Shown here piece after piece: positions 1-41,662 of a stretch of 64,000 nucleotides of DNA (positions are counted from its first letter, which is position 1; every line of letters begins with the position of its first letter). The position numbers and the translations under genes were made by a program. Location of the stretch: sequence record NC_106597.1; one strand, written 5' to 3'. The notes beneath the pieces were generated by a model. The model was not told the origin of the DNA. It made no database searches and saw only the letters and a program-made list of their open reading frames with translations. Source of the DNA: Escherichia phage BB1.

Positions 1-99
1 CCCCACGGCTGACAAAGAAGTTTGCGAGACTTCTCTTAACTGCCAGAATAGACCCGCCGATCTATCGGAACCTACTCAATAAGTAAACTTTATAGTATC

Positions 100-220
100 A
101 TTCTAGACAGGACTCGAACCTGCTATCACTTGTGCGGACTTACGAGAACCATTCTTTCACTCGAATCGAACGAGCTTCTGCCCTAGCCAAGCTGGTTTCC
201 CCATCAACCACGCTAGAATG
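100..220 (-). other. tRNA-like element(s), not foldable into a canonical cloverleaf by hand
   Basis: Two T-arm-like motifs in minus sense (GCAGG-TTCGAGT-CCTGT at 107-123; GCTCG-TTCGATT-CGAGT at 159-175); terminal 7-mers complementary about 120 nt apart; no clean anticodon arm. Confidence 0.25.
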
Positions 221-404
221 TTTGATTGTTTTCAGTGCAAGAGTCCGAGTCTTGGACACGACCGCTTTGCAAGTACATAGGCAGCTTATCATGAGTCAGC
301 ACTTCCGAATTGCTAGCTCCGTGTTCTGCACTGAAATTTTGTTTAAAGAGTCCGGTGTAGCAGTCCGTAAGGGTGCACCTACTGTAGCCTTTACTCTTTA
401 AATT

Positions 405-480
405 TGGTACACCCACTAGGACTTGAACCTAGAACCCTCCGCTTAAGAGGCGGTAGCTCTAACCATTGAGCTATGGATGT
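405..480 (-). tRNA. tRNA-Lys (anticodon CUU)
   Basis: Manual cloverleaf in minus sense: acceptor ACATCCA/TGGGTGT, D-stem GCTC/GAGC, anticodon loop CTCTTAA, T-arm CTAGG-TTCAAGT-CCTAG, encoded CCA. Confidence 0.7.
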
Positions 481-556
481 ATTATTATGCTTTGCAGTGC
501 TCTAAATATAGATACTTCCCACGCGGTGGTTATCTATACCAGCGTCCTGCAAAAAT

Positions 557-633
557 TGGCGCGACCGATGGGATTTGAACCCACATTCCCTCCCGTGACA
601 GGGGAGTACCATTACCAAGCCAGCCCCGGTCGC
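557..633 (-). tRNA. tRNA-Asp (anticodon GUC)
   Basis: Manual fold: perfectly complementary acceptor (rc of gcgaccg/cggtcgc), 5-bp anticodon stem with loop rc of gtgacag, T-loop TTCAAAT, encoded CCA. Confidence 0.75.
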
Positions 634-642
634 ATAATTCAT

Positions 643-828
643 TTACTCAGCTTTGAGTTTTTCAATAGCTGCATTAAGTTCTTTAAGAAACTCTTTTCGT
701 ACATTAAGACGGTTGAGACTTACTAGTATATCATGTTTAAGTTCTTCGATGTATTTCTTCTCAACTTCAATATTGTTGAGAGTGCTATCACGATGAACTT
801 CTAGCTGTGCAATTACATTCTTGGACAT
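643..828 (-). CDS. hypothetical small protein (61 aa, coiled-coil-like)
   Basis: ORF with GAGGAAAC RBS-like motif upstream of ATG; no recognisable domain. Confidence 0.4.
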   Translation of the reverse strand: MSKNVIAQLEVHRDSTLNNIEVEKKYIEELKHDILVSLNRLNVRKEFLKELNAAIEKLKAE

Positions 829-855
829 GCTTGTTTCCTCAGTTATTAATGAAAA

Positions 856-927
856 TGGTATCTGTGGCTGAATTCGATGTCAGCAATGATAGCTGGTTGG
901 CTACCGGTTTACTTAACTCTACACAGA
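856..927 (-). tRNA. tRNA-like element (possible degenerate tRNA)
   Basis: TGG (rc CCA) followed by 6-bp complementary termini (tctgtg/cacaga); T-arm-like gctga-attcgatg-tcagc; anticodon arm not canonical. Confidence 0.3.
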
Positions 928-930
928 ATT

Positions 931-1013
931 TGGCGGGCCGTGTAGGATTCGAACCTACGTTGTCTTTCGACATGGATTAACAGTCCACCGCCAAACCGCT
1001 TGGCTAACGACCC
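931..1013 (-). tRNA. tRNA-Asn (anticodon GUU) with unusually long 13-nt variable arm
   Basis: Manual fold: acceptor GGGTCGT/ACGGCCC, D-arm GCCA-AGCGGTT-TGGC, anticodon arm GTGGA-CTGTTAA-TCCAT, variable GTCGAAAGACAAC (GAAA tetraloop hairpin), T-arm GTAGG-TTCGAAT-CCTAC, CCA encoded. Confidence 0.65.
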
Positions 1014-1165
1014 TGAATTTGTATTGCTGACTAGGATTTTCACCTAGACGGAGTTAGCACCGTAGCGTGTAGCGGCATACCTCTCCAAACCGTGCCTCAT
1101 CTTTCAATTACGGAGACAGTGTTCCTACGCGTGCCTGAATTGATTTAACAATTCTTTCAGCAAAT

Positions 1166-1241
1166 TGGACGACCGCATGAGATTTGAACTCACATAAAAA
1201 GGATTTGCAATCCTTCGCCTAAGCCATTCAGCCAACGGTCG
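1166..1241 (-). tRNA. tRNA-Cys (anticodon GCA)
   Basis: Manual fold: anticodon stem aagga/tcctt with loop rc of tttgcaa, T-loop TTCAAAT, acceptor pairs with one G-U, encoded CCA. Confidence 0.75.
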
Positions 1242-1289
1242 ATTTATCTTGTTCTGTCATGTTGCTTCTCCAGTTCAATTTATGTAATT

Positions 1290-1318
1290 ATTATACAGAA
1301 CTTTTGGAAACTAAGCAA
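1290..1318 (-). promoter_or_regulatory. early promoter, sigma70-like (minus sense TTGCTT-17 bp-TATAAT)
   Basis: Plus-strand attata at 1290-1295 and aagcaa at 1313-1318 with 17-bp spacer; member of the repeated promoter family. Confidence 0.6.
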
Positions 1319-1583
1319 CTACATTTTTTAAGAATTTGATGCCTTTCTTTTTCTTCTTATATTTCCACGTTAATGGATTCTGTCGATTATGAACGCTTGA
1401 GATCTTTGTCTCGTCAAAGTTCTTCAATATCATGTAATCACAAGATAATTGTTCTAATGGAATGTGATCACCGTCAAAAGCATATACATAAGGCTGTTGA
1501 CTAGCACGATAATGATAGACTTTGTTAATTCTACGTTTCAGCGACTTATCCGCGCAGTAAATAAAGAAATTTTCAGGATGCAT
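1311..1583 (-). CDS. hypothetical protein (90 aa)
   Basis: ORF with AAAGGAG RBS before ATG. Confidence 0.5.
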   Translation of the reverse strand: MHPENFFIYCADKSLKRRINKVYHYRASQQPYVYAFDGDHIPLEQLSCDYMILKNFDETKISSVHNRQNPLTWKYKKKKKGIKFLKNVVA

Positions 1584-1600
1584 CAGCAGCTCCTTTAAAT

Positions 1601-1675
1601 TGGTGCACCCCGTTGGTAACGATCCAACCTCTCAAGCTCTTCAGGCAAGCGCTAATCCATCTCAGCTAAAGGTGC
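1601..1675 (-). tRNA. tRNA, tentative anticodon GAA (Phe); non-canonical (U-U mismatches in anticodon stem, T-loop ATCGTTA)
   Basis: Manual fold: acceptor GCACCTT/GGGGTGC, T-stem GGTTG/CCAAC, anticodon loop CTGAAGA; anticodon stem has only 3 of 5 pairs. Confidence 0.45.
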
Positions 1676-1681
1676 AAATTT

Positions 1682-1758
1682 TGGCAAACCTACTAGGACT
1701 CGAACCTAGACCGTACGGTTTTGGAGACCGACATGCTGTCCAGTAACACTCTAGGAAT
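1682..1758 (-). tRNA. tRNA-Trp (anticodon CCA), tentative
   Basis: T-arm CTAGG-TTCGAGT-CCTAG, anticodon loop CTCCAAA, encoded CCA; acceptor and D-arm pair poorly. Confidence 0.5.
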
Positions 1759-1766
1759 GCAGAAAT

Positions 1767-1843
1767 TGGCGTCCTGTGCGGGGATCGAACCCACAAATCC
1801 TACCTTGAAAGGGTAGTGACTTTACCAGTTTGTCTAACAGGAC
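1767..1843 (-). tRNA. tRNA-Glu (anticodon UUC)
   Basis: Manual fold: perfect acceptor (gtcctgt/acaggac), anticodon stem ctacc/ggtag with loop rc of ttgaaag, T-loop TTCGATC, encoded CCA. Confidence 0.75.
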
Positions 1844-2325
1844 TTAAATTGCTTATTGGATAGATTGTTAAACTCGGAAAGTATTTCGTTTACACCTCTG
1901 TCTAACACTACCCATTCATTAAGCCGTTCAGGAAAGCTATTATGAAGCATTTTCTCCGCTTCTCTAGCATTAAACCAAAATGACCAATGTATTAACTTAT
2001 AATCACGTAAAGGAGAATAGGTTTGGTAATTTCCTAATCTTGTTTTAGGATCAGAAGACATACCAATTTTTACATAGTTATCCCAAGCTGGGTTAGTTAT
2101 TGCGTAAATAAAACCACAGCTGGATTTTTCTCCAATACTTTTGTTATACTTGATAAAAGATAGTGCAGATAACTTCAAGCTATATCGACGATTACTATCG
2201 CGACCAAAGTTAGCTGTACCGAATGTGAGGCTTTCTAACATTAGATCTTTGTTTATATCAGCTGGTGAACCCAACTGTATAATACCCCTATTTGCAGCTT
2301 CTTGAATTATCCGATCAATATACAT
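1834..2325 (-). CDS. T5orf172-type GIY-YIG-like domain protein (putative homing-type endonuclease)
   Basis: 163 aa; motif CGFIYAITNPAWDNYVKIGMSSDPKTRL resembles the GIY-YIG/T5orf172 core; AAAGGTAAAGG RBS; stop codon overlaps the 5' end of tRNA-Glu. Confidence 0.55.
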   Translation of the reverse strand: MYIDRIIQEAANRGIIQLGSPADINKDLMLESLTFGTANFGRDSNRRYSLKLSALSFIKYNKSIGEKSSCGFIYAITNPAWDNYVKIGMSSDPKTRLGNYQTYSPLRDYKLIHWSFWFNAREAEKMLHNSFPERLNEWVVLDRGVNEILSEFNNLSNKQFKSC

Positions 2326-2342
2326 ATCCTTTACCTTTAATT

Positions 2343-2430
2343 TGGTGGGCGTTAATGGAGTCGAACCACTCGAGTCGCAATGACCAGGGATTTACAATCC
2401 CCTCCGCTACCACTTACGGAATAAACGCCC
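2343..2430 (-). tRNA. tRNA-Tyr (anticodon GUA), long variable arm
   Basis: Manual fold: acceptor GGGCGTT/AACGCCC, anticodon loop TTGTAAA, long variable region, T-arm AGTGG-TTCGACT-CCATT, CCA encoded. Confidence 0.75.
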
Positions 2431-2558
2431 ATATTTAAAAGTATTCAAATACTAGTTTAAACACTTTTAAATATGTTTCCAAATTAGATAACTATTATAC
2501 CAAGTTTTAAGGCACTGAGCAAGTCAAATTTTAAAGAACTTGCTCAGTGCTGTATTAG

Positions 2559-2834
2559 TTAGTCGAACTTAGGAGTGACAGTTAAGGAGAATGGAAGTTC
2601 GAAGACTTCTTCGCCCTCATCACTAACAGTAATTACACGACCTTTAAGTTCAGACATTGAAATATCAATATCAGCTTTTGCATCTGGAGCCATGCCAGCT
2701 TCAACACATTTAGCTTTAATTTCCGGCAGAAGTTCTACATCGTAGAAATAAAGCCATTCAATCTCACCTTCCCAGCCTTCCCAGGATTTACAGATTGCAC
2801 TTTCAATACCAGTTGCTATAACACGATTTTGCAT
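2559..2834 (-). CDS. hypothetical protein (91 aa)
   Basis: ORF with GAAGGAG RBS. Confidence 0.5.
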   Translation of the reverse strand: MQNRVIATGIESAICKSWEGWEGEIEWLYFYDVELLPEIKAKCVEAGMAPDAKADIDISMSELKGRVITVSDEGEEVFELPFSLTVTPKFD

Positions 2835-2924
2835 TCGTTAACTCCTTCATCAATTTATATAACTATTATACCAGAAATTTAAAGCAAAAGGCAAGTACAT
2901 TTTTAAAAATTCTGTTTGGAGGAG

Positions 2925-3131
2925 CTAAACTCCAGATTCTTCAGCTAAGTCTAGGCTAATAAGAGATATAGCCATAATTGCTGCTCCGTGTTCTCTTTCT
3001 CCTGTCTCTTTAGCTAGGGTTATAATATCAAGAAATTGCTTATGAAAGTCTGCAACCTCTTGAGTCATACCTGCCTCAGCAATCATGCCTTTAAGCATGA
3101 AACGTTGTGCGGTAATTTCGGGATTAGCCAT
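2925..3131 (-). CDS. hypothetical protein (68 aa)
   Basis: ORF with GGAG RBS. Confidence 0.45.
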   Translation of the reverse strand: MANPEITAQRFMLKGMIAEAGMTQEVADFHKQFLDIITLAKETGEREHGAAIMAISLISLDLAEESGV

Positions 3132-3291
3132 GTTGTTTCTCCAGTTTCATGTTTAATAGTCTACAAATAAAATCAATGTCTTCATCTGTGCCTAGATCTC
3201 TATCTTCAAGAGTTGCCTTGAAGTTTTTCGTCAATTCCATGAGGATAACTTCTCTAGAACGACGTGTTGGCGGAGGTGGATGTCTATACAT
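3124..3291 (-). CDS. hypothetical small protein (about 55 aa, proline-rich N-terminus), below ORF-track size cutoff
   Basis: Hand-translated MYRHPPPPTRRSREVIL...; AAGGAAATAAG RBS; stop overlaps start of downstream gene. Confidence 0.4.
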   Translation of the reverse strand: MYRHPPPPTRRSREVILMELTKNFKATLEDRDLGTDEDIDFICRLLNMKLEKQHG

Positions 3292-3305
3292 CTTATTTCC
3301 TTAAG

Positions 3306-3382
3306 TTGGTAGGGGTGGTGGGATTCGAACCCACAAAACCTGAATTTTAAGTCCAGTACCTATGCCAATTCGATTACACCCC
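3306..3382 (-). tRNA. tRNA with anticodon UAA (Leu-type) but short class-I variable loop
   Basis: Manual fold: acceptor GGGGGTG/CACCCCT, anticodon arm CTGGA-CTTAAAA-TTCAG, variable GTTTT, T-arm GTGGG-TTCGAAT-CCCAC, A73, CCA encoded; D-arm does not pair canonically. Confidence 0.55.
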
Positions 3383-3484
3383 CATGTAATCAGTTTATTA
3401 GTTGGTACATATTATAGCCTAGTGAAAATCCTACTACTAGTCCCACAAACCAACCAATATAATAATCTTTTAGTTTCACAGGTA

Positions 3485-3670
3485 TTATCCTCGTTCAATA
3501 TCTAGGGAAATACCGCAGTTAGGATTAATACCTGTACCGTTGCAATTTGAACAAATCCAGATATTGCAAAAAGTATCTCCTGCTTCTGCATCAGAACTTT
3601 CACCAATTCCCCTACATTCAGGGCAGGCACATTCTTCTAGCTCTTGCTTGAGTTCTTGAAACTTAGACAT
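3485..3670 (-). CDS. small Cys-rich zinc-ribbon-like protein (61 aa)
   Basis: CxxC...C...CxxC pattern (CACPECRG...CNIWICSNCNG); AAGGAG RBS. Confidence 0.5.
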   Translation of the reverse strand: MSKFQELKQELEECACPECRGIGESSDAEAGDTFCNIWICSNCNGTGINPNCGISLDIERG

Positions 3671-3679
3671 ATAGTCTCC

Positions 3680-3868
3680 TTAGTCAATTACTTTTGAGGC
3701 TTCAAGGGAGTCGATATAGTATACGTTTTCTACCATAATCATATAATCTGCCACTTTATCCATAGCTTGGGCCTCAGAGGTAGCTCTGGCTAACCTATAT
3801 CCTTTTTTATATTCATCCGGGTATTCTCTATCTTGAATAAACACAACATAAACTATGTATAATTCCAC
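3680..3868 (-). CDS. hypothetical small protein; start uncertain (GTG at 3868 or ATG at 3763)
   Basis: Track ORF 3680-4015 overlaps tRNA 3888-3965, so truncated to the first plausible start after the tRNA with a GGGGA RBS. Confidence 0.3.
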   Translation of the reverse strand: MELYIVYVVFIQDREYPDEYKKGYRLARATSEAQAMDKVADYMIMVENVYYIDSLEASKVID

Positions 3869-3887
3869 TTGTAATCCCCTAATTAAG

Positions 3888-3965
3888 TTGGTGGCTCCCC
3901 GAGGATTCGAACCTACGTACCTTCCGGTTATGAGCCGGGTGCTCATACCATATGAGCTTGAGAAC
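3888..3965 (-). tRNA. tRNA-Met or tRNA-Ile (anticodon CAU)
   Basis: Manual fold: acceptor GGTTCTC/GGGAGCC (with G-U), D-arm GCTC/GAGC, anticodon arm CCGG-CTCATAA-CCGG; T-stem only 3 bp; CCA encoded. Confidence 0.55.
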
Positions 3966-3971
3966 CAAAAT

Positions 3972-4065
3972 CTGGAGGAAGATGCCAGACTCGAACTGGC
4001 ACACCATGTTTCCACAGTTACTGGCTGTTTAGCAAACAGCTCCCTTACCTTTAGGGTTAATCTTC
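3972..4065 (-). tRNA. tRNA-Ser (anticodon GCU)
   Basis: Manual fold: perfect acceptor GGAAGAT/ATCTTCC, 3-bp D-stem, anticodon arm GCTGT-TTGCTAA-ACAGC, long variable arm, T-arm GCCAG-TTCGAGT-CTGGC, CCA encoded. Confidence 0.65.
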
Positions 4066-4087
4066 CGAATTTATAAGATATATTATA

Positions 4088-4609
4088 TTAGAAATTTAGC
4101 TTCATAGCAAGAAAATTTTTCAAGTTTTCGGTAGACATCTCATCTACATCTACAGGAGAAACAAAGCCGTTTAATTTTCTAGCAAATTTTTCACCATCGG
4201 GATCATTGTCTCCAACAGCTACCAATTTAAAAGGTAGTAATTTCAGTTGCTTTAATAACGCTTTTCCTGGAGAAGAACCCAACATTGCTAGGGCTGGATA
4301 ACCAGCGTTATGTAACGCAACTGCCTTAAATACAGATTCAGCAATCAATACTACTTTTTCATCTCCATTGAGAGTTTCTAGTCCCCATACACACTGGGTA
4401 GTAGAATAAGTAAAGTATTTAGCTTCAAAGGGGCACTTACCATGACCTTTTGGAGCAGAAGGATTATAAGTTTGATAGCCCCTCAACATCCCAGAGAAGT
4501 CATACAACGGGACTGTTAGCCATCCTTCTGGACTTAACCAGCAATGATATTTATCTGTATCAAATCCCCTAGATAAGAGGTGCTGTGTTAGCTCATCAAC
4601 ATTCATATT
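4088..4609 (-). CDS. Toprim-domain-like protein (about 173 aa)
   Basis: Conserved-looking E (IAESVF) and DxD (VGDNDPDGEKF) resembling the Toprim fold; start moved to MNVDELTQ with GAGAGGAACC RBS downstream of promoter 4637-4665. Confidence 0.45.
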   Translation of the reverse strand, partial: NMNVDELTQHLLSRGFDTDKYHCWLSPEGWLTVPLYDFSGMLRGYQTYNPSAPKGHGKCPFEAKYFTYSTTQCVWGLETLNGDEKVVLIAESVFKAVALHNAGYPALAMLGSSPGKALLKQLKLLPFKLVAVGDNDPDGEKFARKLNGFVSPVDVDEMSTENLKNFLAMKLNF

Positions 4610-4636
4610 TGGTTCCTCTCTCAAATTTATAGATAT

Positions 4637-4665
4637 ATTATACAGAGAATTTAGCATTCAAGCAA
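4637..4665 (-). promoter_or_regulatory. early promoter (minus sense TTGCTT-17-TATAAT)
   Basis: attata 4637-4642, 17-bp spacer, aagcaa 4660-4665. Confidence 0.6.
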
Positions 4666-4781
4666 TCAAATTTTTTAACTTTTTAGAGGAAAATCATAGG
4701 GCACTTAAGGGTAGCAGATAAGTGGTGAGGACCAAAATTTGTGACCCCACTAAAAATCCGGGGGCAATTTTTAAAGACCCC

Positions 4782-4810
4782 TTGACATTTTCGCTGGGGT
4801 AGTGTAAAGT
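4782..4810 (+). promoter_or_regulatory. sigma70-type promoter (TTGACA-17-TAAAGT) sharing the 13-mer TTGACATTTTCGC with the element at 34512
   Basis: Consensus -35 at 4782-4787; 17-bp spacer; -10-like TAAAGT at 4805-4810. Confidence 0.5.
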
Positions 4811-4872
4811 ATATGTTATGGATGAGTGATCAAAGAGACACACATTTTCTATATACTAGGAGGTGTCAAAAA

Positions 4873-5859
4873 ATGACAGAAGAAGTAGCTAAGAGTCCTG
4901 AGACCGTCGCTAGCGTTGCAGCAGAACTGCACCGTCACGAGGAATCAGATAAGAAAAAGTGGGAGAAGGTCAGAGCCTACGAAGAAAAACATCGTGAACA
5001 CGATGATGAAGAAGATGACGATGATGAACATTGTCATAAATATGGAAAACATAAAATGCAAGAACCAGTAAACGTATTCACTAGTGGCTTCCCTGGCCTA
5101 CTGGGTGGTTACCCAGCAAACGCAGGTGCTTTCGGTGGTGAAGGTATGGGACTATTCGGAGCTATCCTAATCGGTGCTCTATTAACAGGCGGATTCGGTG
5201 GTTTCGGTGGATTCGGTGGACGTGGTGTAGTTGGTGAAGGTACCGCAGTTGATGCGGTACTTCAGAACCAAGATACCGCTAGTATTCTAGCAGCTATTAA
5301 CACTACTCGTACAGAAGCTAATCAGGGTACTGGGGCTGTGTTAAGCGCAGTTAACAATGGTTTTAGCCAGACATCCCAAAACCAGAGCCGTGATACTCAG
5401 TCTGTACTAACTACGATTTATGGTACAGGTGCTAATCTGTCTAATCAGATCTGCCAGGAAACTCGCAACGTTATTCAGGGTCAGTTCGATCTTTCTCGCC
5501 AGATTGATCAATCTTTCGCAGCTAACCAGATAGCTCGTGCACAAGATAAATTTGATTCTGCACAGATCGCTTTCCAGCAGACTTTACAAACTAATAACCA
5601 GTTTGCCGCTGTTCAGGCTCAGATGTGTGCTAACCAGAACTCTCTGGAACGTCAGATCGCTGAATGTTGCTGTGAACTTCAGACTGCGATCGCTGGTGTA
5701 ACTACTGCGCGTATCCAGGATGAGTTAGATGCATGTCGCCTACGTGAGGCAATCGCTGCGGGTAATGGTGCTAACGGTCAGGTAATTAATCAAATCGCTG
5801 TAAGTCTTGGTGCAATCACTCAGACTCTGGCTGGTCTGCAGGCTAAACTGCCGGCTTAA
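4873..5859 (+). CDS. low-complexity protein: acidic/His-rich N-terminus, Gly-zipper hydrophobic segment (GGFGGFGGFGG), Q/N/S/T-rich C-terminal region
   Basis: AGGAGGTG RBS 7 nt before ATG at 4873 (track ORF starts earlier at 4813); by eye GC and codon choice look higher than neighbours. Confidence 0.6.
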   Translation: MTEEVAKSPETVASVAAELHRHEESDKKKWEKVRAYEEKHREHDDEEDDDDEHCHKYGKHKMQEPVNVFTSGFPGLLGGYPANAGAFGGEGMGLFGAILIGALLTGGFGGFGGFGGRGVVGEGTAVDAVLQNQDTASILAAINTTRTEANQGTGAVLSAVNNGFSQTSQNQSRDTQSVLTTIYGTGANLSNQICQETRNVIQGQFDLSRQIDQSFAANQIARAQDKFDSAQIAFQQTLQTNNQFAAVQAQMCANQNSLERQIAECCCELQTAIAGVTTARIQDELDACRLREAIAAGNGANGQVINQIAVSLGAITQTLAGLQAKLPA

Positions 5860-5880
5860 TATTAAGGGGAGGAGCCCATT

Positions 5881-6297
5881 ATGAGTAAATATGGTTTTGT
5901 AAATAACGGACTTAATCAAAGTATGGGCTCCCAGCAGCCCATTCCGGGTCTGGATAACCCCTACTTACAACAGTTGCAACAGCGTTTAGCAGAAGCGCAA
6001 CAGATGCAGCAACAACTCCAGCAAAACCCTGGAAGTGTGAGTCCTATGCAAATGATGCAGCAAATGAGCGGGCAGTCGCAAATGCCTCAACAAATGCAGC
6101 AACAGGTGCCTCAGCAGCAAGTTCAGCAACAAACCCAACAACCGCAGGTTTCTGCGGAAGGACAGGCAGTACTAGCCCTTTTCGAAGACTTCGCAAAGAC
6201 AGAGGATGGGAAACAGCTTGTATCACTTATGGGTAAGTTTAATAGCTTCTGCCAAAGCCAAGTTGCAAAAGCTCAAAATGGGGGTAGTAACTCCTAA
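5881..6297 (+). CDS. glutamine-rich low-complexity protein (138 aa)
   Basis: GGGGAGGAG RBS; long poly-Q/QM stretches. Confidence 0.55.
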   Translation: MSKYGFVNNGLNQSMGSQQPIPGLDNPYLQQLQQRLAEAQQMQQQLQQNPGSVSPMQMMQQMSGQSQMPQQMQQQVPQQQVQQQTQQPQVSAEGQAVLALFEDFAKTEDGKQLVSLMGKFNSFCQSQVAKAQNGGSNS

Positions 6298-6306
6298 GGA
6301 GGAAAT

Positions 6307-6501
6307 ATGTGTTGCAGAAAATCTGTTTCGTGCTGCCCAATGCCTGTAGCACGTTGTTGCTCTCCAGCAATGTTTACACAAATACCGGCGTTCAATCCCT
6401 TTGCCTTTAAGCCTACTCTTATCCTGCCCCCTAGAGTAGATTTTCAGTCAAGATTGGCCTCCCGTATGGGTGGTTGCTGTACACCGAGAGTATGGTTCTA
6501 A
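6307..6501 (+). CDS. small Cys-rich protein (64 aa, four CC dipeptides)
   Basis: TAAGGAGG RBS 5 nt upstream of ATG; followed by intrinsic terminator. Confidence 0.45.
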   Translation: MCCRKSVSCCPMPVARCCSPAMFTQIPAFNPFAFKPTLILPPRVDFQSRLASRMGGCCTPRVWF

Positions 6502-6511
6502 ACCAAAAACA

Positions 6512-6548
6512 AAAGCCCCTGCCGAAAGGTAAGGGGCTTTTTCTTTTG
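6512..6548 (+). terminator. rho-independent terminator
   Basis: Hairpin aaagcccct...aaggggcttt followed by T-run. Confidence 0.65.
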
Positions 6549-6556
6549 CCTTAAAT

Positions 6557-6592
6557 ACAGAAAAGCCCGCGCTCTCGTAGGAAACGCGGGCT
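6557..6592 (-). terminator. rho-independent terminator (minus sense), downstream of SPFH gene
   Basis: GC-rich hairpin gcccgcg...cgcgggc with T-run in minus sense. Confidence 0.55.
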
Positions 6593-6616
6593 TGGTTCGA
6601 AGATTACGTGTAACTA

Positions 6617-7564
6617 TTACTTGTTACGCATATCCATGATCATTTGACCATCGTAGCCAGTACCTACCACAGTCTGAGGTACACCACCTTGATACTTCTG
6701 AGCACGGATCATTTCAACTTCCAATTGCTTCCAACGAATCATCTCAGGAGTAATGGTACGTTGCAATGCGGCGTTAGCTTCAGCTTCTTTCTTAGCTGCG
6801 TACAGTTTAGCATCTGCGTCACGTTCATTAGCAATAGCTTGGTTGTTACGAGCTTCACGATCTGCTTCTGCTTGTTTAACTTTTTGCTGTGCTTCCTGTT
6901 CAACGCGAGCAAGTTCAGCTTTCGCAGCATTAACTTGCTCTTCACGAACTTTGGTATTCTGTACCTGTTCCATGATTACTGGCGGCAAAGTAATATCCTG
7001 AAGGAACACCTGCTTAACTGTGTAACCATATGGGCGTGCATACTCTTCAACTTCCTGTTGAATTGCAGTTTGCAATTGAGCCTGAATTTTAGCATCAAAT
7101 AAATCTTGTGCTTTAGGTACAGACTTACCAAACTCACGAATAGTAGACAGTAATTTTTCAGTTACATACTTGTCTAGTGCCTGATCCTGAGTACCTGCGT
7201 TAATACGGTTAATCGGTGCTTTAGAACCATCAAACTGCAACATAACAGTCAGGTCAACAGTGGATTTAAACTTATCCTGGCTAGGAACCTGAAGTTTATC
7301 TAATTTTACAGCAATATCTTTTGTACTAAAAGTATCGAAAGATGCAAACGGGTTTACAAGATGGAAACCCGGCAATACTGGATTAGGGTCTACTTTACCC
7401 AGGAATGTTTGGGTTTTAACCGTACCATCAGAAACAATAGTATATGAATTAAAAGCTAGGATTAAACCTGCTAAACCAACTACAGCACCAATACCCCAAC
7501 GTTTAATAGTACGAATTACTTTCTGCTCAGAAGTCAGTTCTTTCATATTTTTAGTAGCAAACAT
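6617..7564 (-). CDS. SPFH/band-7 (prohibitin/HflK-HflC-like) membrane protein
   Basis: N-terminal TM helix (IGAVVGLAGLILAF), SPFH-like core, C-terminal Ala/Glu-rich coiled coil; AAAGGAAAT RBS. Confidence 0.75.
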   Translation of the reverse strand: MFATKNMKELTSEQKVIRTIKRWGIGAVVGLAGLILAFNSYTIVSDGTVKTQTFLGKVDPNPVLPGFHLVNPFASFDTFSTKDIAVKLDKLQVPSQDKFKSTVDLTVMLQFDGSKAPINRINAGTQDQALDKYVTEKLLSTIREFGKSVPKAQDLFDAKIQAQLQTAIQQEVEEYARPYGYTVKQVFLQDITLPPVIMEQVQNTKVREEQVNAAKAELARVEQEAQQKVKQAEADREARNNQAIANERDADAKLYAAKKEAEANAALQRTITPEMIRWKQLEVEMIRAQKYQGGVPQTVVGTGYDGQMIMDMRNK

Positions 7565-7598
7565 ATATTTCCTTTGTTTTAGTTACAGTTAATAAAAT

Positions 7599-7673
7599 TG
7601 GCCGAGGTGACAGGATTCGAACCTGCATAAAGGAATTTAGAAGACTCCTGCCTCTCCCTTAGACTACACCCCG
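7599..7673 (-). tRNA. tRNA-Arg (anticodon UCU)
   Basis: Manual fold: T-arm GCAGG-TTCGAAT-CCTGT, anticodon stem with loop rc of ttagaag, acceptor pairs with one G-U, CCA encoded. Confidence 0.7.
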
Positions 7674-8172
7674 TTTAAGTATTTTTAAGAACTCTCGTAA
7701 AAACTCTTAAAAATACAGACGATACCGGGAGAGTCATAAGTCTCACTCATTAAGTATTTCAAGACAAAATACGGTAACGTCTATTATTTTCCAGTTTAAG
7801 TCAGGGTGACTTAGTGGTTATGTCCTGCGGTATATTGAGGACTCGGTTAGGCTTGGGGTCATGACTTCCCGCCTTTTGCTGCTACTCAACAGGAGTTATC
7901 GCGAATTACCTGTGCTATTGTGCACCATTAGTGACATCTCTCATGTCAGCATTTCCCACTTTGTGGATAGCTTGAAAAACTACTCCGATATGGAGAAAGA
8001 ACTTCACTATCCTAGAATACCTTCTAAAGTTCTTCTTTAGCCTGGACATAGTTAAATCGTAATAAAACTATTCAGCAGACTGGTTGGTTAGTCTGGAACC
8101 AACTACCGCGTGGTTTAGGCAGTGCGCAACTAACCTAGGAAGCTTTTACGTTAAAAGCATCAGTTATCCAGT

Positions 8173-8250
8173 TCTTACCGACCGTAGGATTCGAACCTAC
8201 ATCTTCCACCAGTTACGGCTTGATAATACCAATTATACTAGGACGGCAGT
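8173..8250 (-). tRNA. tRNA-like element (possible pseudo-tRNA)
   Basis: Canonical T-arm GTAGG-TTCGAAT-CCTAC but no CCA, mismatched acceptor and no clean anticodon arm. Confidence 0.3.
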
Positions 8251-8470
8251 GTTACTACATAAGTGATTTCCACACCCCACTATTTATAAATCAGAGAAGA
8301 GTTTAGGGGAGAGGTTTCAGACGCCTCATTTTACACGTTCTAGCCACTAACCGGGATTGCCGCCCCCTGTGTACTAGTTTTACAACTAACCCACCGACTC
8401 TATTCAATGCGCTCCGGTTGGGATTCTGCACTCAGCGTAATCGGCTCGCTGTTCCCTAATTTATGAATAT

Positions 8471-8499
8471 ATTATACAGAATTTATAAGCATTTAGCAA
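8471..8499 (-). promoter_or_regulatory. early promoter (minus sense TTGCTA-17-TATAAT)
   Basis: attata 8471-8476, 17-bp spacer, tagcaa 8494-8499; conserved caatttatgaa downstream. Confidence 0.65.
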
Positions 8500-8507
8500 A
8501 TGAATTT

Positions 8508-8942
8508 TTAGAAAAATTCACTAGCAATCAAAGCAGTTGTTTTACCGTCATAACGTCCTGGAAACTCTGCCTTAATGGTTTTCATTAAGAGAGCTTTGGT
8601 AATGCCGGGGTTTAGCTTAACCAGTTCTGCAAAGTATTTACGAATTTCAGTTTCAGTCAGTTGACTTGGCTGATACTCTTGCAGCATGGAATAAAGCAGT
8701 TGCTCATAGTCTACATCAGTAGGGACTTTCGTACCAACTTTAATAGCGCGCTGTTTTGCATTTTCTAGAGCCTTAATCTGAGCTTTCAGATAGGCTACAA
8801 ACTCGGTTCGAGTAACAATGTCTTTATCAATACGTTGCAGGTCGCCAATCATGGTCTGAAGATTAAGTGCCCGCTCTTTATCACCGTGAGTACGTGCTAG
8901 ACTAAGCAGTCCACGAAGGGTCGTTAGGATATTTTCACCCAT
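8508..8942 (-). CDS. hypothetical protein (144 aa)
   Basis: ORF; start overlaps stop of upstream small ORF (TAATG). Confidence 0.5.
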   Translation of the reverse strand: MGENILTTLRGLLSLARTHGDKERALNLQTMIGDLQRIDKDIVTRTEFVAYLKAQIKALENAKQRAIKVGTKVPTDVDYEQLLYSMLQEYQPSQLTETEIRKYFAELVKLNPGITKALLMKTIKAEFPGRYDGKTTALIASEFF

Positions 8943-9112
8943 TATTTCATCCCCAATGCTTGGTTAAAAGATTGTTCTGTCATAACTGCTGAGACTTTGG
9001 CGAAATCAAACTTTTTAGGGTTCGTAGTGATTTCAGCAACGTTAGAAGTTTTAACAGTTTTCGTAGTACGAATACCGCGAGTGTTAACACCAATAATTAC
9101 AACTGATTTCAT
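8942..9112 (-). CDS. hypothetical small protein (about 56 aa), below ORF-track cutoff
   Basis: Hand-translated MKSVVIIGVNTRGIRTTK...; strong RBS AATGAGAGGAAGCGAAAT before ATG. Confidence 0.45.
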   Translation of the reverse strand: MKSVVIIGVNTRGIRTTKTVKTSNVAEITTNPKKFDFAKVSAVMTEQSFNQALGMK

Positions 9113-9180: not shown

Positions 9181-9648
9181 TTAAGTTTTAGTGACAACAG
9201 GTTTATAAAATGTATGTCCCTTAATCTTAGTTGTTTTCTTAAACTTCTTTGTCCAGTAAGGTTTATCTTTACCGCTATGAAAGTATAACGCTCCATATGT
9301 GGGATCTTGCGGTAAATCAACGTAGTATATCACTCTAGCTAAATTCTTAGCGGTTTGCCAAGCCTCATCAGTTTTATCAACTTTTGGTCTCTTAGATACC
9401 CAAGAGAACTGGTTAGACTGATATACTACTTTACAGTAGGAATCCGGGAATTTACCGGAGTTTACACGGTTTTTAGTAACATGTGCAATCGCCGTCATTC
9501 CCTTTATGCCCTCACCACGACTTTCGAAATAGATATTTTTAGCAATGCAATCTATTTCTTTTGCATCGTGCGATGCCTGACTACTAAAGCTGAAGGTAAG
9601 GGCAGCTACTAAAAGCAAAGCTGCCTTCATTCTTTTTACTCCTGCCAA
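9181..9648 (-). CDS. secreted cell-wall hydrolase, SleB-like
   Basis: N-terminal signal peptide (MKAALLLVAALTFSFSSQA); motif IAKNIYFESRGEG...VYQSNQFSW typical of the SleB/cell-wall hydrolase family. Confidence 0.65.
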   Translation of the reverse strand: MAGVKRMKAALLLVAALTFSFSSQASHDAKEIDCIAKNIYFESRGEGIKGMTAIAHVTKNRVNSGKFPDSYCKVVYQSNQFSWVSKRPKVDKTDEAWQTAKNLARVIYYVDLPQDPTYGALYFHSGKDKPYWTKKFKKTTKIKGHTFYKPVVTKT

Positions 9649-37758: not shown

Positions 37759-38645
37759 GTAGAATAACAGAACTACTTGATCTGAAAGGCATTGAATATA
37801 AAGACACAGGTGGGGACATCCTCATCTGTTGTCTCAATCCAGATCATGACGATAAACACCCAAGTTTGCGTATTGATCCTGAAACAGGTATTATGCACTG
37901 CTTGAGTTGTGGCTTCGGTAAAGGTATACCGAGCATTTACCATTATTTTAATGAGACTCAGTACCGACAGTCCCCAAGACTATCACAGGTACGTAAAAAG
38001 ATTTCAGAGATTAGGAATGGATCTACGAATCTTGCAATTCCTGAATCTGCTTACCTTTTCGAAGGTGATTTCCGAGGTATAAGTTCTAAGACCTTGAAGA
38101 AATATTTTGCTTTCCAACACCAAGCAGACTGGGAAGGCAGAATTGTATTCCCAATCACAGATGCTGTTGGACGCAATATCCTATTTTTGGGTCGTTCTAT
38201 AAACAGTTCTGCCCCTCCTAAATACCTAGTAAAACCAAAACAAGTTTCACCGCCAATTTTTCCTGTACGATATAATACTCCAGTTCTTATTCTAGTTGAA
38301 GGTATCTTTGATATGCTGAATCTAGAGGATAATGGTATAGACTATGCTTCTTGTTGCTTTGGTACACATCAGTTTACTTCAGACAACATTGCAGATAAGT
38401 TCAGTCCGTATATTATTGCTGGTGTTAAAGTTGTTGTTATCTTACTAGATAATGATGCTTCTGGTAATAAAGCTGCACAAGCACTGGCTAAGCTAATTCG
38501 TACAAAAACGCGTTTAACACCTGTAGTTGCTAACTTTCTTCTGCCTGAAGGTAAAGACCCAGGTGACTTAAATAAAGAAGAAATTGATATGTTAGCAAAA
38601 CGTATTGAAATTTTAGTTGCTGAATCGCTTAAAGATTTGGTATAA
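37755..38645 (+). CDS. DNA primase (DnaG-type: zinc-binding + Toprim)
   Basis: Zinc ribbon CCLNPDHDDKHPSLRIDPETGIMHCLSCG; Toprim motifs LVEGIFDMLNL and ILLDNDASG. Confidence 0.8.
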   Translation: MSRITELLDLKGIEYKDTGGDILICCLNPDHDDKHPSLRIDPETGIMHCLSCGFGKGIPSIYHYFNETQYRQSPRLSQVRKKISEIRNGSTNLAIPESAYLFEGDFRGISSKTLKKYFAFQHQADWEGRIVFPITDAVGRNILFLGRSINSSAPPKYLVKPKQVSPPIFPVRYNTPVLILVEGIFDMLNLEDNGIDYASCCFGTHQFTSDNIADKFSPYIIAGVKVVVILLDNDASGNKAAQALAKLIRTKTRLTPVVANFLLPEGKDPGDLNKEEIDMLAKRIEILVAESLKDLV

Positions 38646-38671
38646 TAGTCCTAAATAACTGAGGAGCTACT

Positions 38672-39001
38672 ATGGAATATGTATATATTTATGCGGATGT
38701 TCCAGTGTATGATAGTATAACACACAAAGAGGTTAAACTAGAGCGGTTTACAACACTGGAGTCCCTTAATAAACGAAAGAATTTCCATTTATTTGGTGAT
38801 CCTAAATTACCTGCATCTTATATTTACTTTAAAGTAAAAGATACAGGTCAAGAGGTATACCTAACATATGATTGGGCTGTTGTAGAAAATACTGAGCAAT
38901 CTATGAAAGCGCTAGATGCTTTTCTGCGTATAGATGAAGAATTTCGGGTACTAGAAAAGCAGCGCAATGAAATGCGTAAATTACTTCACACCTATAAATA
39001 G
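38672..39001 (+). CDS. hypothetical protein (109 aa)
   Basis: ORF with GAGGAG RBS. Confidence 0.5.
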   Translation: MEYVYIYADVPVYDSITHKEVKLERFTTLESLNKRKNFHLFGDPKLPASYIYFKVKDTGQEVYLTYDWAVVENTEQSMKALDAFLRIDEEFRVLEKQRNEMRKLLHTYK

Positions 39002-39004
39002 TAT

Positions 39005-39033
39005 TTGCTATTATCCCAATATTTTGATATAAT
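39005..39033 (+). promoter_or_regulatory. early promoter (TTGCTA-17-TATAAT) upstream of DNA polymerase
   Basis: -35 39005-39010, -10 39028-39033; leader contains inverted repeat ggtaagt...acttacc. Confidence 0.65.
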
Positions 39034-39094
39034 ATATTGGTAAGTTAGAGAAGAAACACTGAAGTTATACTTACTTACCAAGAGGAGATTAAAT

Positions 39095-41662
39095 TTGAAA
39101 ATCGCAGTAGTTGATAAAGCTCTAAACAACACTCGTTATGATAAACATTTCCAGCTATACGGCGAGGAAGTTGATGTATTCCATATGTGTAACGAGAAGT
39201 TATCTGGTCGTTTGCTTAAAAAGCACATTACTATTGGAACACCAGAAAACCCATTTGATCCTAATGATTATGATTTTGTTATACTAGTAGGTGCCGAACC
39301 TTTCCTGTACTTTGCAGGTAAGAAAGGTATTGGTGATTATACCGGTAAACGTGTAGAGTATAATGGATATGCTAACTGGATTGCGAGTATCAGCCCAGCC
39401 CAGTTACATTTTAAACCTGAAATGAAACCAGTTTTTGATGCAACAGTAGAGAATATCCACGATATTATCAATGGTCGTGAGAAGATTGCAAAAGCTGGTG
39501 ATTACCGTCCTATTACTGACCCTGATGAGGCGGAAGAATATATCAAGATGGTGTATAATATGGTTATCGGACCTGTCGCATTCGACTCCGAAACCTCAGC
39601 ACTATACTGTCGAGATGGTTATCTGCTTGGTGTTTCTATGTCTCACCAAGAATATCAGGGTGTATATATCGATTCTGATTGTCTCACAGAGGTTGCAGTA
39701 TATTATCTCCAGAAAATTCTGGATAGTGAAAACCACACTATTGTTTTTCACAACTTGAAGTTTGATATGCACTTTTATAAGTACCATCTGGGACTTGCTT
39801 TTGATAAAGCGCATAAAGAACGCAGGCTCCATGATACCATGTTGCAGCACTATGTTCTAGATGAACGTCGTGGTACTCATGGCTTGAAATCTCTAGCGAT
39901 GAAGTACACCGATATGGGTGACTATGACTTCGAACTAGATAAGTTCAAAGATGATTACTGCAAAGCACATAAAATCAAGAAAGAAGATTTCACCTATGAT
40001 TTAATTCCGTTTGATATTATGTGGCCTTACGCTGCGAAAGATACAGATGCTACCATACGTTTGCACAACTTCTTCTTACCAAAAATTGAGAAGAATGAAA
40101 AACTTTGCAGTCTGTATTACGATGTTCTAATGCCTGGTTGTGTATTCCTACAGCGTGTTGAAGATCGTGGTGTACCTATTTCTGTTGATCGTTTAAAAGA
40201 AGCTCAGTATCAGTTAACCCATAATCTGAATAAAGCCCGTGAGAAACTGTATACTTATCCAGAAGTCGTTCAGCTAGAAAAAGACCAGAACGAAGCATTT
40301 AACCCAAACTCTGTTAAGCAGCTACGTGTTCTTCTGTTTGATTATGTTGGTTTAACTCCAACAGGTAAACTGACGGATACTGGAGCAGATTCTACGGATG
40401 CAGAAGCTCTGAATGAACTGGCTACGCAGCATCCAATTGCTAAAACTCTGCTAGAGATTCGTAAGCTGACTAAGCTAATTTCTACTTATGTTGAGAAAAT
40501 TCTTCTGAGTATTGATGCAGATGGTTGCATTCGTACTGGTTTCCACGAACATATGACTACTTCTGGTCGTCTGAGTTCTTCTGGTAAACTGAACCTGCAA
40601 CAGTTACCTCGTGATGAATCTATTATCAAGGGTTGTGTAGTAGCTCCTCCTGGGTACCGTGTAATCGCGTGGGACTTAACAACTGCGGAAGTTTACTATG
40701 CTGCTGTTCTATCTGGTGATAGAAATATGCAACAGGTATTTATCAACATGAGAAATGAACCTGATAAATACCCTGACTTCCACTCTAACATCGCACACAT
40801 GGTATTTAAGCTCCAATGCGAGCCTCGTGATGTTAAAAAGTTATTCCCAGCTCTGCGTCAGGCTGCTAAGGCAATTACCTTCGGTATTTTGTATGGTTCT
40901 GGTCCGGCTAAAGTAGCTCATTCTGTTAACGAAGCTCTTCTGGAACAGGCTGCTAAGACAGGAGAACCGTTTGTTGAGTGTACTGTTGCTGATGCGAAGG
41001 ACTATATCGAAACTTACTTCGGTCAGTTCCCGCAGCTTAAGCGTTGGATTGATAAGTGCCACGATCAGATCAAGAATCATGGATTTATCTATAGTCACTT
41101 TGGTCGTAAACGTCGTCTGCATAATATCCATTCAGAAGACCGTGGCGTTCAGGGTGAAGAAATTCGTTCTGGGTTTAACGCAATCATTCAGTCTGCTTCT
41201 TCTGATAGCCTACTTTTAGGTGCTGTAGATGCAGATAATGAGATCATTTCTCTTGGCCTAGAACAAGAGATGAAGATTGTTATGCTGGTTCACGACTCCG
41301 TAGTTGCTATTGTTCGTGAGGATTTGATCGACCAATACAATGAAATCCTGATTCGTAATATTCAGAAAGACCGTGGTATTAGTATTCCTGGCTGTCCGAT
41401 TGGTATTGATTCAGATTCTGAAGCTGGAGGTTCTCGTGACTACTCTTGTGGTAAGATGAAGAAACAGCACCCATCAATCGCTTGTATTGATGATGATGAA
41501 TATACTCGTTATGTCAAGGGTGTATTACTTGATGCAGAGTTCGAGTATAAGAAACTAGCTGCAATGGATAAAGAGCATCCAGATCATAGCAAATACAAGG
41601 ATGATAAGTTTATTGCTGTATGTAAAGATTTGGATAACGTGAGAAGGATTCTCGGTGCTTAA
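39095..41662 (+). CDS. DNA polymerase, family A (Pol I-like, with 3'-5' exonuclease domain)
   Basis: Motif B RQAAKAITFGILYG, motif C VHDS, exonuclease FDSET; apparent TTG start 8 nt after AGAGGAG. Confidence 0.95.
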   Translation: MKIAVVDKALNNTRYDKHFQLYGEEVDVFHMCNEKLSGRLLKKHITIGTPENPFDPNDYDFVILVGAEPFLYFAGKKGIGDYTGKRVEYNGYANWIASISPAQLHFKPEMKPVFDATVENIHDIINGREKIAKAGDYRPITDPDEAEEYIKMVYNMVIGPVAFDSETSALYCRDGYLLGVSMSHQEYQGVYIDSDCLTEVAVYYLQKILDSENHTIVFHNLKFDMHFYKYHLGLAFDKAHKERRLHDTMLQHYVLDERRGTHGLKSLAMKYTDMGDYDFELDKFKDDYCKAHKIKKEDFTYDLIPFDIMWPYAAKDTDATIRLHNFFLPKIEKNEKLCSLYYDVLMPGCVFLQRVEDRGVPISVDRLKEAQYQLTHNLNKAREKLYTYPEVVQLEKDQNEAFNPNSVKQLRVLLFDYVGLTPTGKLTDTGADSTDAEALNELATQHPIAKTLLEIRKLTKLISTYVEKILLSIDADGCIRTGFHEHMTTSGRLSSSGKLNLQQLPRDESIIKGCVVAPPGYRVIAWDLTTAEVYYAAVLSGDRNMQQVFINMRNEPDKYPDFHSNIAHMVFKLQCEPRDVKKLFPALRQAAKAITFGILYGSGPAKVAHSVNEALLEQAAKTGEPFVECTVADAKDYIETYFGQFPQLKRWIDKCHDQIKNHGFIYSHFGRKRRLHNIHSEDRGVQGEEIRSGFNAIIQSASSDSLLLGAVDADNEIISLGLEQEMKIVMLVHDSVVAIVREDLIDQYNEILIRNIQKDRGISIPGCPIGIDSDSEAGGSRDYSCGKMKKQHPSIACIDDDEYTRYVKGVLLDAEFEYKKLAAMDKEHPDHSKYKDDKFIAVCKDLDNVRRILGA

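Follow-up and report, generated by a model that had tools for sequence, protein, structure and literature searches.

A mobile three-gene accessory operon of T5-like phages (T5.077-T5.078-T5.079) and its possible role at the host membrane

We analysed a three-gene cassette at positions 4782-6548 of a 64,000-nucleotide stretch of Escherichia phage BB1 (NC_106597.1; this whole stretch is called the window below). The cassette is the T5.077-T5.078-T5.079 operon of T5-like phages. Its three genes are inherited together and are under purifying selection, the whole unit is dispensable and sporadically distributed, and the product of the first gene belongs to a family that extends to other orders of phages. 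The reading that we favour, to which as a whole we give a probability of about 0.4, is that of a mobile accessory early operon encoding a membrane-anchored complex with a conditional role in host interaction. Its descriptive parts are very probably correct; a specific role, exclusion of other phages or counter-defence, is rather doubtful.

Structure and identity of the operon

The DNA at 4700-6620 is 98-99% identical to many Tequintavirus (T5-like) genomes, with 379 matching records. In the comparison of this DNA with T5-like genomes the identity is 98.8%, and the cassette is syntenic with positions 38064-39671 of T5, including promoter P12 and the terminator. The first two open reading frames (ORFs) match PHROG 8119 (ORF1, E = 5.8e-204) and PHROG 7894 (ORF2, E = 1.1e-79). 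The following features were found.

4763-4810, plus strand: promoter P12, with the element TTTTAAAG upstream, the -35 box TTGACA at 4782-4787, a 17-nucleotide spacer and the -10 box TAAAGT at 4805-4810
4858-4865, plus strand: Shine-Dalgarno (SD) site of ORF1, AGGAGGTG, with an 8-nucleotide anti-SD match, the longest of the window
4873-5859, plus strand: ORF1, 328 amino acids, T5.077 family, PHROG 8119
5868-5872, plus strand: core of the SD site of ORF2, GGAGG, with a 5-nucleotide anti-SD match
5881-6297, plus strand: ORF2, 138 amino acids, T5.078 family, PHROG 7894
6296-6302, plus strand: SD site of ORF3, AAGGAGG, with a 7-nucleotide anti-SD match, overlapping the ORF2 stop codon
6307-6501, plus strand: ORF3, 64 amino acids, T5.079
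6511-6547, plus strand: terminator of the cassette, of the intrinsic type, with a hairpin at 6511-6541 and a T-run after it, named 'ter1' in phage 5
6563-6593, minus strand: second hairpin, containing GCGC, which terminates the convergent SPFH gene at 6617-7564

In a consensus scan P12 is a promoter of the sigma-70 type, matching the consensus in 10 of 12 positions, with a perfect -35 hexamer. An anti-SD match of 7 nucleotides is reached by only one of the 56 other genes in the window. The hairpins at 6511-6541 and 6563-6593 fold together with -41.5 kcal/mol (z = -3.9). Every other long ORF between 1 and approximately 21 kb, as well as all ten tRNAs in 1-9000, is on the minus strand. Thus an earlier note on this DNA was right to describe a self-contained plus-strand cassette among minus-strand genes, with a promoter, three ORFs preceded by SD sites, and back-to-back hairpins.

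Two further observations concern the ends of the cassette. P12 is covered by a 49-amino-acid ORF on the minus strand (4694-4843), which is annotated as a coding sequence in phage MM-1 and is probably a false gene call. At the other end, the GCGC in the hairpin at 6563-6593 is at the position of the T5 'major DNA single-chain interruption' (nick consensus Pu-pGCGC), and the convergent terminator may lie at one of the nicks that T5-type genomes carry at fixed sites.

The outline of the locus is already present in curated records, and its existence is not new. In the T5 record NC_005859 the syntenic stretch consists of P12 followed by T5.077, T5.078 and T5.079, each a 'hypothetical protein', and by an 'efficient bidirectional rho-independent transcription terminator', with the single-chain interruption just 3' of the latter. 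An older record of Salmonella phage 5 lists ORFs of 327, 138 and 64 amino acids, P12, ter1 and three ribosome-binding sites. The products of all three genes are labelled hypothetical in all records. Searches by locus tags, PHROG identifiers and accessions found no papers discussing T5.077-T5.079; they are listed only in supplementary tables of a CRISPRi-ART study. What is added here is the strict co-inheritance of the trio, the deep conservation of its promoter and terminator layout, its presence in a Pseudomonas phage and its repeated clean losses, as well as a link, made by sequence comparison, between T5.077 and a broad uncharacterised phage superfamily that is defined by a CCC motif and reaches the crAss-like phages of the gut.

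Distribution, losses and base composition

Homologues of ORF1, ORF2 and ORF3 were identified by tblastn in 221, 221 and 220 phage records, respectively, so that the trio is inherited together. The surrounding region is matched in 464 phage records, and about half of these lack the cassette. More distant versions were found in two metagenomic contigs of approximately 110 kb resembling Demerecviridae (L012 and L013), where ORF1 is 43-47% identical and the three products have 310, 106-107 and 63-69 amino acids. The third gene again starts with MCC, and the trio again lies opposite to the strand of its neighbours. At this distance (about 45% identity in ORF1) the promoter is retained at the same position as TTGACA-17-TAAAGT or TAGAGT, with an invariant TTTTAAAG before the hexamers, and back-to-back terminators are also seen in L013. 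Thus the genes are enclosed by a promoter and a terminator of their own, as in morons, both in BB1 and in L012 and L013. Finally, Pseudomonas phage RSP, an unrelated phage of 63 kb, carries the trio next to its terminase genes, also with a third gene starting with MCC; there the GC content of the trio (0.58 vs 0.565 for the whole RSP locus) matches that of the genome. A scan of viral contigs with ORF2 returned T5-like isolates only.

The cassette is present or absent among close relatives with clean junctions. Alignment of the junctions demonstrated that phage Shivani has lost precisely the three ORFs and the first hairpin, retaining P12 and the second hairpin, and that the deletion in phage SA001 is larger. 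A laboratory stock of BF23 has lost approximately 4 kb, listed as ORF071-075 of the T5 assembly AY587007 and starting from the Toprim/Rad gene (PMC10644984). By its position this loss should include the cassette, and that BF23 genome matches just 37 nucleotides of 3700-7900 of the window. In a transcriptome-wide CRISPRi-ART analysis of T5, T5.077, T5.078 and T5.079 are listed as unknown and each is scored 'Not Fit' (PMC11879866, supplements).

All three genes are under purifying selection, the ratios of nonsynonymous to synonymous substitution rates (dN/dS) being 0.13-0.29 for ORF1, 0.08-0.27 for ORF2 and, where divergence is sufficient, 0.14-0.19 for ORF3. The cassette is not uniform in its divergence. 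Between 4873-6501 of the window and T5 (L003, 8065-9672) the synonymous divergence is 0.47 in ORF1, 0.086 in ORF2 and 0.012 in ORF3, a pattern that suggests either recombination with a breakpoint within the three genes or the existence of different alleles of ORF1. Several entries named 'Enterococcus faecalis hypothetical protein, partial', from contigs of 0.3-1.6 kb, share the 90% cluster of T5.077 and are probably contaminating T5-like phage reads.

The GC content of 4873-6501 is 0.468, compared to the gene mean of 0.392 (z = 2.4), and is the highest among the 1.6-kb stretches of the window, in agreement with the impression that the cassette is GC-richer than its surroundings. However, the excess in ORF1 is in codon positions 1 and 2, whereas the GC content of third positions (GC3) is ordinary (z = 0.6), and therefore it reflects the content of glycine, alanine and glutamine. 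Only in ORF2 is GC3 raised (z = 2.65). Composition is therefore no clear evidence of foreign origin. The codon adaptation index (CAI) relative to E. coli, approximate and based on Sharp-Li weights, is 0.44 for ORF1, exceeded by 6 of the 56 other genes (top seventh), and about average for ORF2 (0.24) and ORF3 (0.22). The suggestion of host-like codons thus applies, moderately, to ORF1 and does not apply to the other two genes. Similarly, of the proposal that this is a highly expressed or horizontally acquired unit, mobility is borne out by the distribution, and base composition gives no clear sign of foreign origin.

The three proteins and the CCC family

ORF1 starts with an acidic, histidine-rich tail (residues 1-80; net charge -9, seven histidines). 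A single hydrophobic, glycine-rich segment, LFGAILIGALLTGGFGGFG, follows at approximately residues 91-117; its hydropathy (Kyte-Doolittle, 19 residues) is 1.72, above the usual transmembrane threshold. ORF1 also contains an EPVNVF motif and an N/Q-rich helical domain with the pattern C252-x12-C265C266C267, in which the cysteine cluster reads ECCCE. The tail, the glycine-rich segment and this cluster had all been named in the earlier note. The AlphaFold2 model of ORF1, based on an alignment of 18 sequences, contains helices at 134-167 and 175-325 at low confidence (predicted local distance difference test, pLDDT, 50), and a Foldseek search of the PDB with it produced only meaningless matches to rod-like proteins (vimentin, Vipp1; E > 2). 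In 33 members of the family the glycine-rich segment has an acidic residue before it and an arginine after it, and the mean number of lysines and arginines is 0.27 on the N-terminal side vs 1.0 on the C-terminal side. This is a weak but consistent positive-inside signal, suggesting that the N-terminus of ORF1 is outside and its C-terminus inside the cytoplasm.

ORF2 consists of an N-terminal helix (27-48), a variable disordered linker rich in glutamine, methionine and proline, and a conserved C-terminal helical hairpin (92-133) with the motif TEDGKQLV..GKFNSFCQS. With AlphaFold2 run on ORF2 alone the hairpin is predicted at a pLDDT of 82-95; Foldseek with this model gave no matches in the PDB or BFVD. 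The protein was thought to be a prion-like poly-Q protein, and it is indeed rich in glutamine (27.5%, with 7% methionine). However, the glutamine tract is not conserved across the family: it is a predicted disordered linker, shortened or absent in L012 and L013, and the conserved parts are the helices flanking it. Several GenBank homologues of ORF2 (PV016700.1, MW567727.1, NC_106514.1) are labelled 'cAMP-dependent protein kinase catalytic subunit'. Since no kinase domain is detectable with Pfam or NCBIfam, this label is a misannotation copied between records.

ORF3 is a basic peptide rich in proline and phenylalanine that starts with MCCRKSVSCC. As had been noticed, its 64 residues contain four CC dipeptides, that is eight cysteines (12.5%). 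Beyond T5-like phages conservation is limited to the MCC start, a second CC pair and a small number of aromatic residues and prolines. The peak hydropathy over 19 residues is 0.85, and there is neither a hydrophobic leader nor a lipobox. ORF3 is rarely annotated in records. Neither ORF2 nor ORF3 contains a hydrophobic segment of transmembrane level.

Scans of ORF1-3 against Pfam, NCBIfam and PADLOC found nothing significant, nor did searches of PDB sequences, made with single sequences as well as with CCC-domain and ORF2 profiles. In particular, PADLOC models had no matches at E <= 0.01 for ORF1-3, the neighbouring SPFH protein and three distant homologues. Accordingly, the absence of a recognisable enzyme domain is confirmed in these databases, and no well-characterised structural or enzymatic homologue emerged from the profile and structure searches. 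On the other hand, these are not merely low-complexity proteins, as the note had it: ORF1 has a domain common to several phage orders, and the C-terminal hairpin of ORF2 is confidently predicted. The poly-Q and GC features are secondary by-products.

A full HMMER scan with ORF1 against 1.8 billion representatives (E <= 1e-3) found 23 relatives. When two distant relatives were used in tblastn, homologues were observed in crAss-like phages, more than 100 Vibrio phage records, Clostridium perfringens phages, a Butyrivibrio phage and many gut phage contigs. Only 17 short unnamed proteins were obtained when a profile of the CCC domain was used in a word-indexed search. The distant homologues are labelled hypothetical or carry similarity-derived names such as 'spike protein/glycoprotein'. 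Three proteins (P0030, P0040, P0042) bridge PHROG 8119, represented in T5 and RSP, and PHROG 16490 from other groups, with matches of 1e-6 to 1e-12. The core of the family is (L/I)x(R/Q)Q..CCC(E/D), where CCC is the only invariant column, and many members have a further cysteine 13 residues upstream of it. One glycine-rich hydrophobic segment and a helical region rich in N, Q, A and T are the other common features. ORF1 has all three characters of the wider superfamily (PHROG 8119, 16490 and 9288): the segment, the helical region and the CCC core.

Members of PHROG 16490 and 9288 share with ORF1 the glycine-rich segment, the N/Q-rich helices and the core LSRQ..CCC[ED]. In contrast, they lack the acidic histidine-rich N-tail and often have tails of cysteine, glycine and tyrosine, such as GCGCGCGC or GYGYGYGYG. 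Unlike in the T5 cassette, their genes are not followed by genes similar to ORF2 or ORF3. Outside the T5-like branch, only a few distant members have the acidic histidine-rich N-tail. Histidine-rich tracts as such are N-terminal in the T5-like proteins, P0035-37 and P0051, and C-terminal in P0059.

Two candidate relationships were rejected. Small Q-rich proteins encoded upstream of the ORF1 homologues of two phages, CPD1 (Clostridium) and Ceridwen (Butyrivibrio), are not supported as ORF2 homologues (hhalign probability below 1%), and there is no support for ORF3 being a split-off cysteine-rich C-terminal tail of the crAss-like and Firmicute members. In the Clostridium, Butyrivibrio and crAss-like lineages the ORF1 homologue is followed by a gene for a protein of 125-153 amino acids that looks beta-rich (L018 5451-5828, L017 5625-6086, L004 6926-7345), opening with the cysteine cluster MTCNRRCNCCNRR in CPD1; it may be a conserved partner of ORF1 there. 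Vibrio phage 1.259.O (L019 2041-2859) has a two-gene cassette running opposite to its neighbours, which are the genes for an M15 endolysin and a holin on one side and for a lipoprotein on the other. The cassette encodes an ORF1-family protein with NAECCCELK and a 65-amino-acid ORF and ends in a perfect bidirectional hairpin, a layout parallel to that in T5 although the phage is unrelated.

Possible function

Next to the cassette are Rad, tRNA-Tyr and further genes with counter-defence roles, which belong to the 'anti-defence island' of T5. The tRNA-rich region of T5 contains several such genes, among them Rad and tRNA-Tyr, as well as small ORFs acting against retron Ec83 and an unmapped anti-AVAST2 determinant (PMC11879866; bioRxiv 10.1101/2023.03.15.532788; PMC11555353). 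On one side of the cassette, the gene at 4088-4657 (minus strand) encodes a Toprim protein, usually labelled 'DNA primase', that is 99% identical to SP15 ORF75, the published retron-defence inhibitor Rad. Farther on the same side, the product of 2559-2834 shares 95% identity with SP15 ORF71, and that of 2925-3131 shares 72% with SP15 ORF72 (both genes on the minus strand); according to a preprint, ORF71/72 or ORF72/73 (the text is inconsistent) jointly neutralise retron Ec83. On the other side, the convergent gene at 6617-7564 (minus strand) encodes an SPFH/Band-7 membrane protein (Pfam, E = 2e-17), called 'lipoprotein' in many records. It is retained by phages lacking the cassette and abuts the cassette in both Tequintavirus and Epseptimavirus. 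Still farther, 2.6 kb from the cassette, the protein encoded at 9181-9630 (minus strand) has a hydrophobic N-terminal stretch resembling a signal peptide. Its T5 counterpart T5.083 is labelled 'endolysin', and syntenic genes in related contigs contain Pfam Hydrolase_2 (PF07486); for T5-like phages the genes of the holin, the second endolysin and the Rz-like spanins are reported from other parts of the genome.

The favoured reading of a conditional host-interaction role at the membrane is inferred from the findings above and from the position next to the T5 counter-defence region (Rad, tRNA-Tyr, the anti-Ec83 ORFs, the anti-AVAST2 determinant); the topology of ORF1, the formation of a complex and the cysteine chemistry are likewise inferred, in contrast to the gene structure, co-inheritance, dispensability, mobility, breadth of the family, single hydrophobic segment, helical content and purifying selection, which are shown. 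It may be spelled out as follows. The cassette would be expressed early from P12, a promoter of early type. ORF1 would be made in quantity, the signals of high expression being the perfect -35 box, the SD matches of 8 and 7 nucleotides and the ORF1 CAI, and would be anchored in the inner membrane by its single glycine-zipper segment. It could self-associate via the long N/Q-rich helices, and the C-x12-CCC cluster, in T5-like phages together with the histidine-rich tail, might form a thiol- or metal-linked node. ORF2, with its helix, flexible linker and helical hairpin, could be an adaptor, and ORF3 is a basic paired-cysteine peptide; neither of these small proteins has an export signal, and they are likely to attach to ORF1 from the cytoplasm. 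The complex would then act on the envelope or the defence state of the infected cell under certain conditions, for instance by keeping competing phages out or by countering a host defence at the membrane, and would stand outside replication, the virion and canonical lysis.

Several points weigh against this. Published screens of fragments from the adjacent part of T5 traced anti-retron activity to genes outside the cassette. The early timing is deduced solely from the type of the promoter. The charge bias behind the topology amounts to about one charge, no significant heptad periodicity was found in ORF1, and a pLDDT of 50 means a poor model. No relatives of ORF2 or ORF3 are detectable next to the ORF1 homologues of crAss-like, Vibrio and Firmicute phages, and therefore the trio is lineage-specific, whereas ORF1 is not. 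Finally, in several phages the ORF1 homologue adjoins lysis or capsid genes, which fits late functions better.

The last point bears on two improbable explanations, between which we see little to choose. One is that ORF1 is a virion or ejection protein, that is, a fibre, a decoration protein or a DNA-pilot-like helical bundle or tube whose glycine-rich segment enters membranes, with ORF2 and ORF3 as assembly partners. The crAss-like homologues are encoded between the portal and major capsid genes and carry the labels 'spike protein/glycoprotein' or 'outer capsid protein/viral fiber', although these labels stem from similarity searches and not from experiments; the RSP trio abuts the terminase genes; and strong expression signals would be appropriate. 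The glycine-rich segment and the long Q/N-rich helices also resemble the architecture of phiX174 H, but homology to H is undetectable. Moreover, in T5-like phages the genes have an early-type promoter and lie in the early tRNA region, about half of these phages do without them, and knockdown had no fitness cost (PMC11879866, supplements). The cassette proteins are not among the virion proteins of the T5-like phage AKFV33 in a study limited to four bands analysed by matrix-assisted laser desorption/ionisation (MALDI); the BF23 virion proteome comes from a stock that apparently lacks the cassette. The other explanation makes ORF1 a membrane-active lysis accessory, resembling a holin, an antiholin or a fusogen, which would adjust the time of lysis or, as spanins and disruptins do, the disruption of the envelope. 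Endolysin and holin genes adjoin the ORF1 homologue in Vibrio phage 1.259.O, in a contig of a gut Firmicute phage, in Ceridwen and in the crAss-like cr116_1, the glycine-rich segment including GLFGAI resembles viral fusion peptides, and the predicted long helices are comparable to the width of the periplasm. However, T5-like phages have a separate holin, endolysins and Rz-like spanins encoded elsewhere in the genome (PMC11664485), ORF3 has no lipoprotein signal, and the family is also found in phages that infect Gram-positive bacteria, for which a spanin would serve no purpose. The early-type promoter and the 'Not Fit' score also argue against a lysis role, and the charge bias suggests that the helical domain is cytoplasmic.

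Metal handling is also a fairly unlikely account when taken by itself, and it may be a mechanism of the favoured reading rather than an alternative to it. Here the histidine tail and CCC of ORF1, the CC pairs of ORF3 and the methionine-rich linker of ORF2 would bind zinc, copper, nickel or iron-sulphur clusters, sequestering or delivering metal at the membrane. Histidine-rich tracts recur at different ends of distant members, CCC is the sole invariant feature of the domain, and cysteine and methionine make up 12.5% of ORF3 and 7% of ORF2, respectively; if the C-terminal domain of ORF1 is cytoplasmic, disulfides are unlikely and metal ligation is more plausible. Yet the argument is one of composition only: no similarity to a known metal-binding family or structure was found in Pfam, NCBIfam or the PDB, the histidine-rich tail is absent from the crAss-like, Vibrio and Firmicute members, and the methionine-richness of ORF2 is not conserved. 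It is extremely improbable that the locus is non-functional, a non-coding spacer in which reading frames arose by chance or are in decay. The unit is compositionally odd and dispensable, its function is unassigned and ORF3 is rarely annotated. Nevertheless, purifying selection acts on ORF1, ORF2 and, where divergence allows a test, ORF3, and dN/dS of 0.08-0.29 rules out chance ORFs; the promoter, SD sites and terminators are conserved; the trio is kept in different groups of phages even where identity is about 45% or lower; and ORF1 is related to families of other phage orders.

Among known systems, the cassette can be compared with morons and exclusion cassettes, such as T4 Imm/Sp and P22 SieA. 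Like these, it has its own promoter and terminator, runs against the gene flow of its neighbours, is sporadic among close relatives, can be dispensed with in the laboratory and has a small membrane protein among its products. The differences are that it has no sequence relation to any named exclusion or moron protein, resides in a virulent phage, comprises three strictly co-inherited genes and is not clearly marked as foreign by its GC3 (z = 0.6 in ORF1, 2.65 in ORF2, for a GC content of 0.468 vs 0.392).

In phiX174 H, as in ORF1, a glycine-rich hydrophobic segment is followed by long helices rich in Q, N, T and A, and both proteins have 328 amino acids. However, H belongs to the virion of a single-stranded DNA phage and lacks the CCC motif, whereas the ORF1 gene has an early-type promoter and is dispensable. 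H was rejected as a homologue, the hhalign probability being 0.5% and the best BLASTP match having E = 0.022 over 32 residues. The Rz/Rz1 pair likewise combines a membrane-anchored helical protein with a small downstream peptide containing proline and cysteine, and the ORF1 family is often near lysis genes. The difference is that ORF3 has neither a lipobox nor a signal sequence and that the locus lies in the early tRNA region, outside the lysis cassette. A two-component spanin was rejected, as ORF3 is not a lipoprotein and a cassette-positive T5-like phage has Rz-like spanins elsewhere (PMC11664485). Class I viral fusion glycoproteins, from which the 'spike protein/glycoprotein' label of the crAss-like homologues derives, share with ORF1 a hydrophobic peptide rich in glycine and phenylalanine (GLFGAI...), long helices and a cysteine cluster. 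This likeness is architectural only: ORF1 has no signal peptide, second transmembrane anchor or match in sequence or fold, and these phages have no envelope.

T5 is a model phage, and a strongly signalled operon next to its counter-defence genes is still without an assigned function. There is a moderate chance that the ORF1 family does something not yet described. More specifically, ORF1 might represent a new class of phage membrane proteins, spread over T5-like, Pseudomonas, crAss-like, Vibrio, Clostridium and Butyrivibrio phages, whose glycine-zipper anchor and helical domain form an assembly at the host membrane stapled by CCC via metal or disulfides, with ORF2 and ORF3 completing its T5-like version, and thus a new way of envelope manipulation, exclusion or counter-defence; in this full form the proposal is unlikely. 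If there is no conditional function, the locus is an ordinary dispensable accessory operon. If exclusion or counter-defence is true, one experiment with T5 would give a function to hundreds of genes in several orders of phages.

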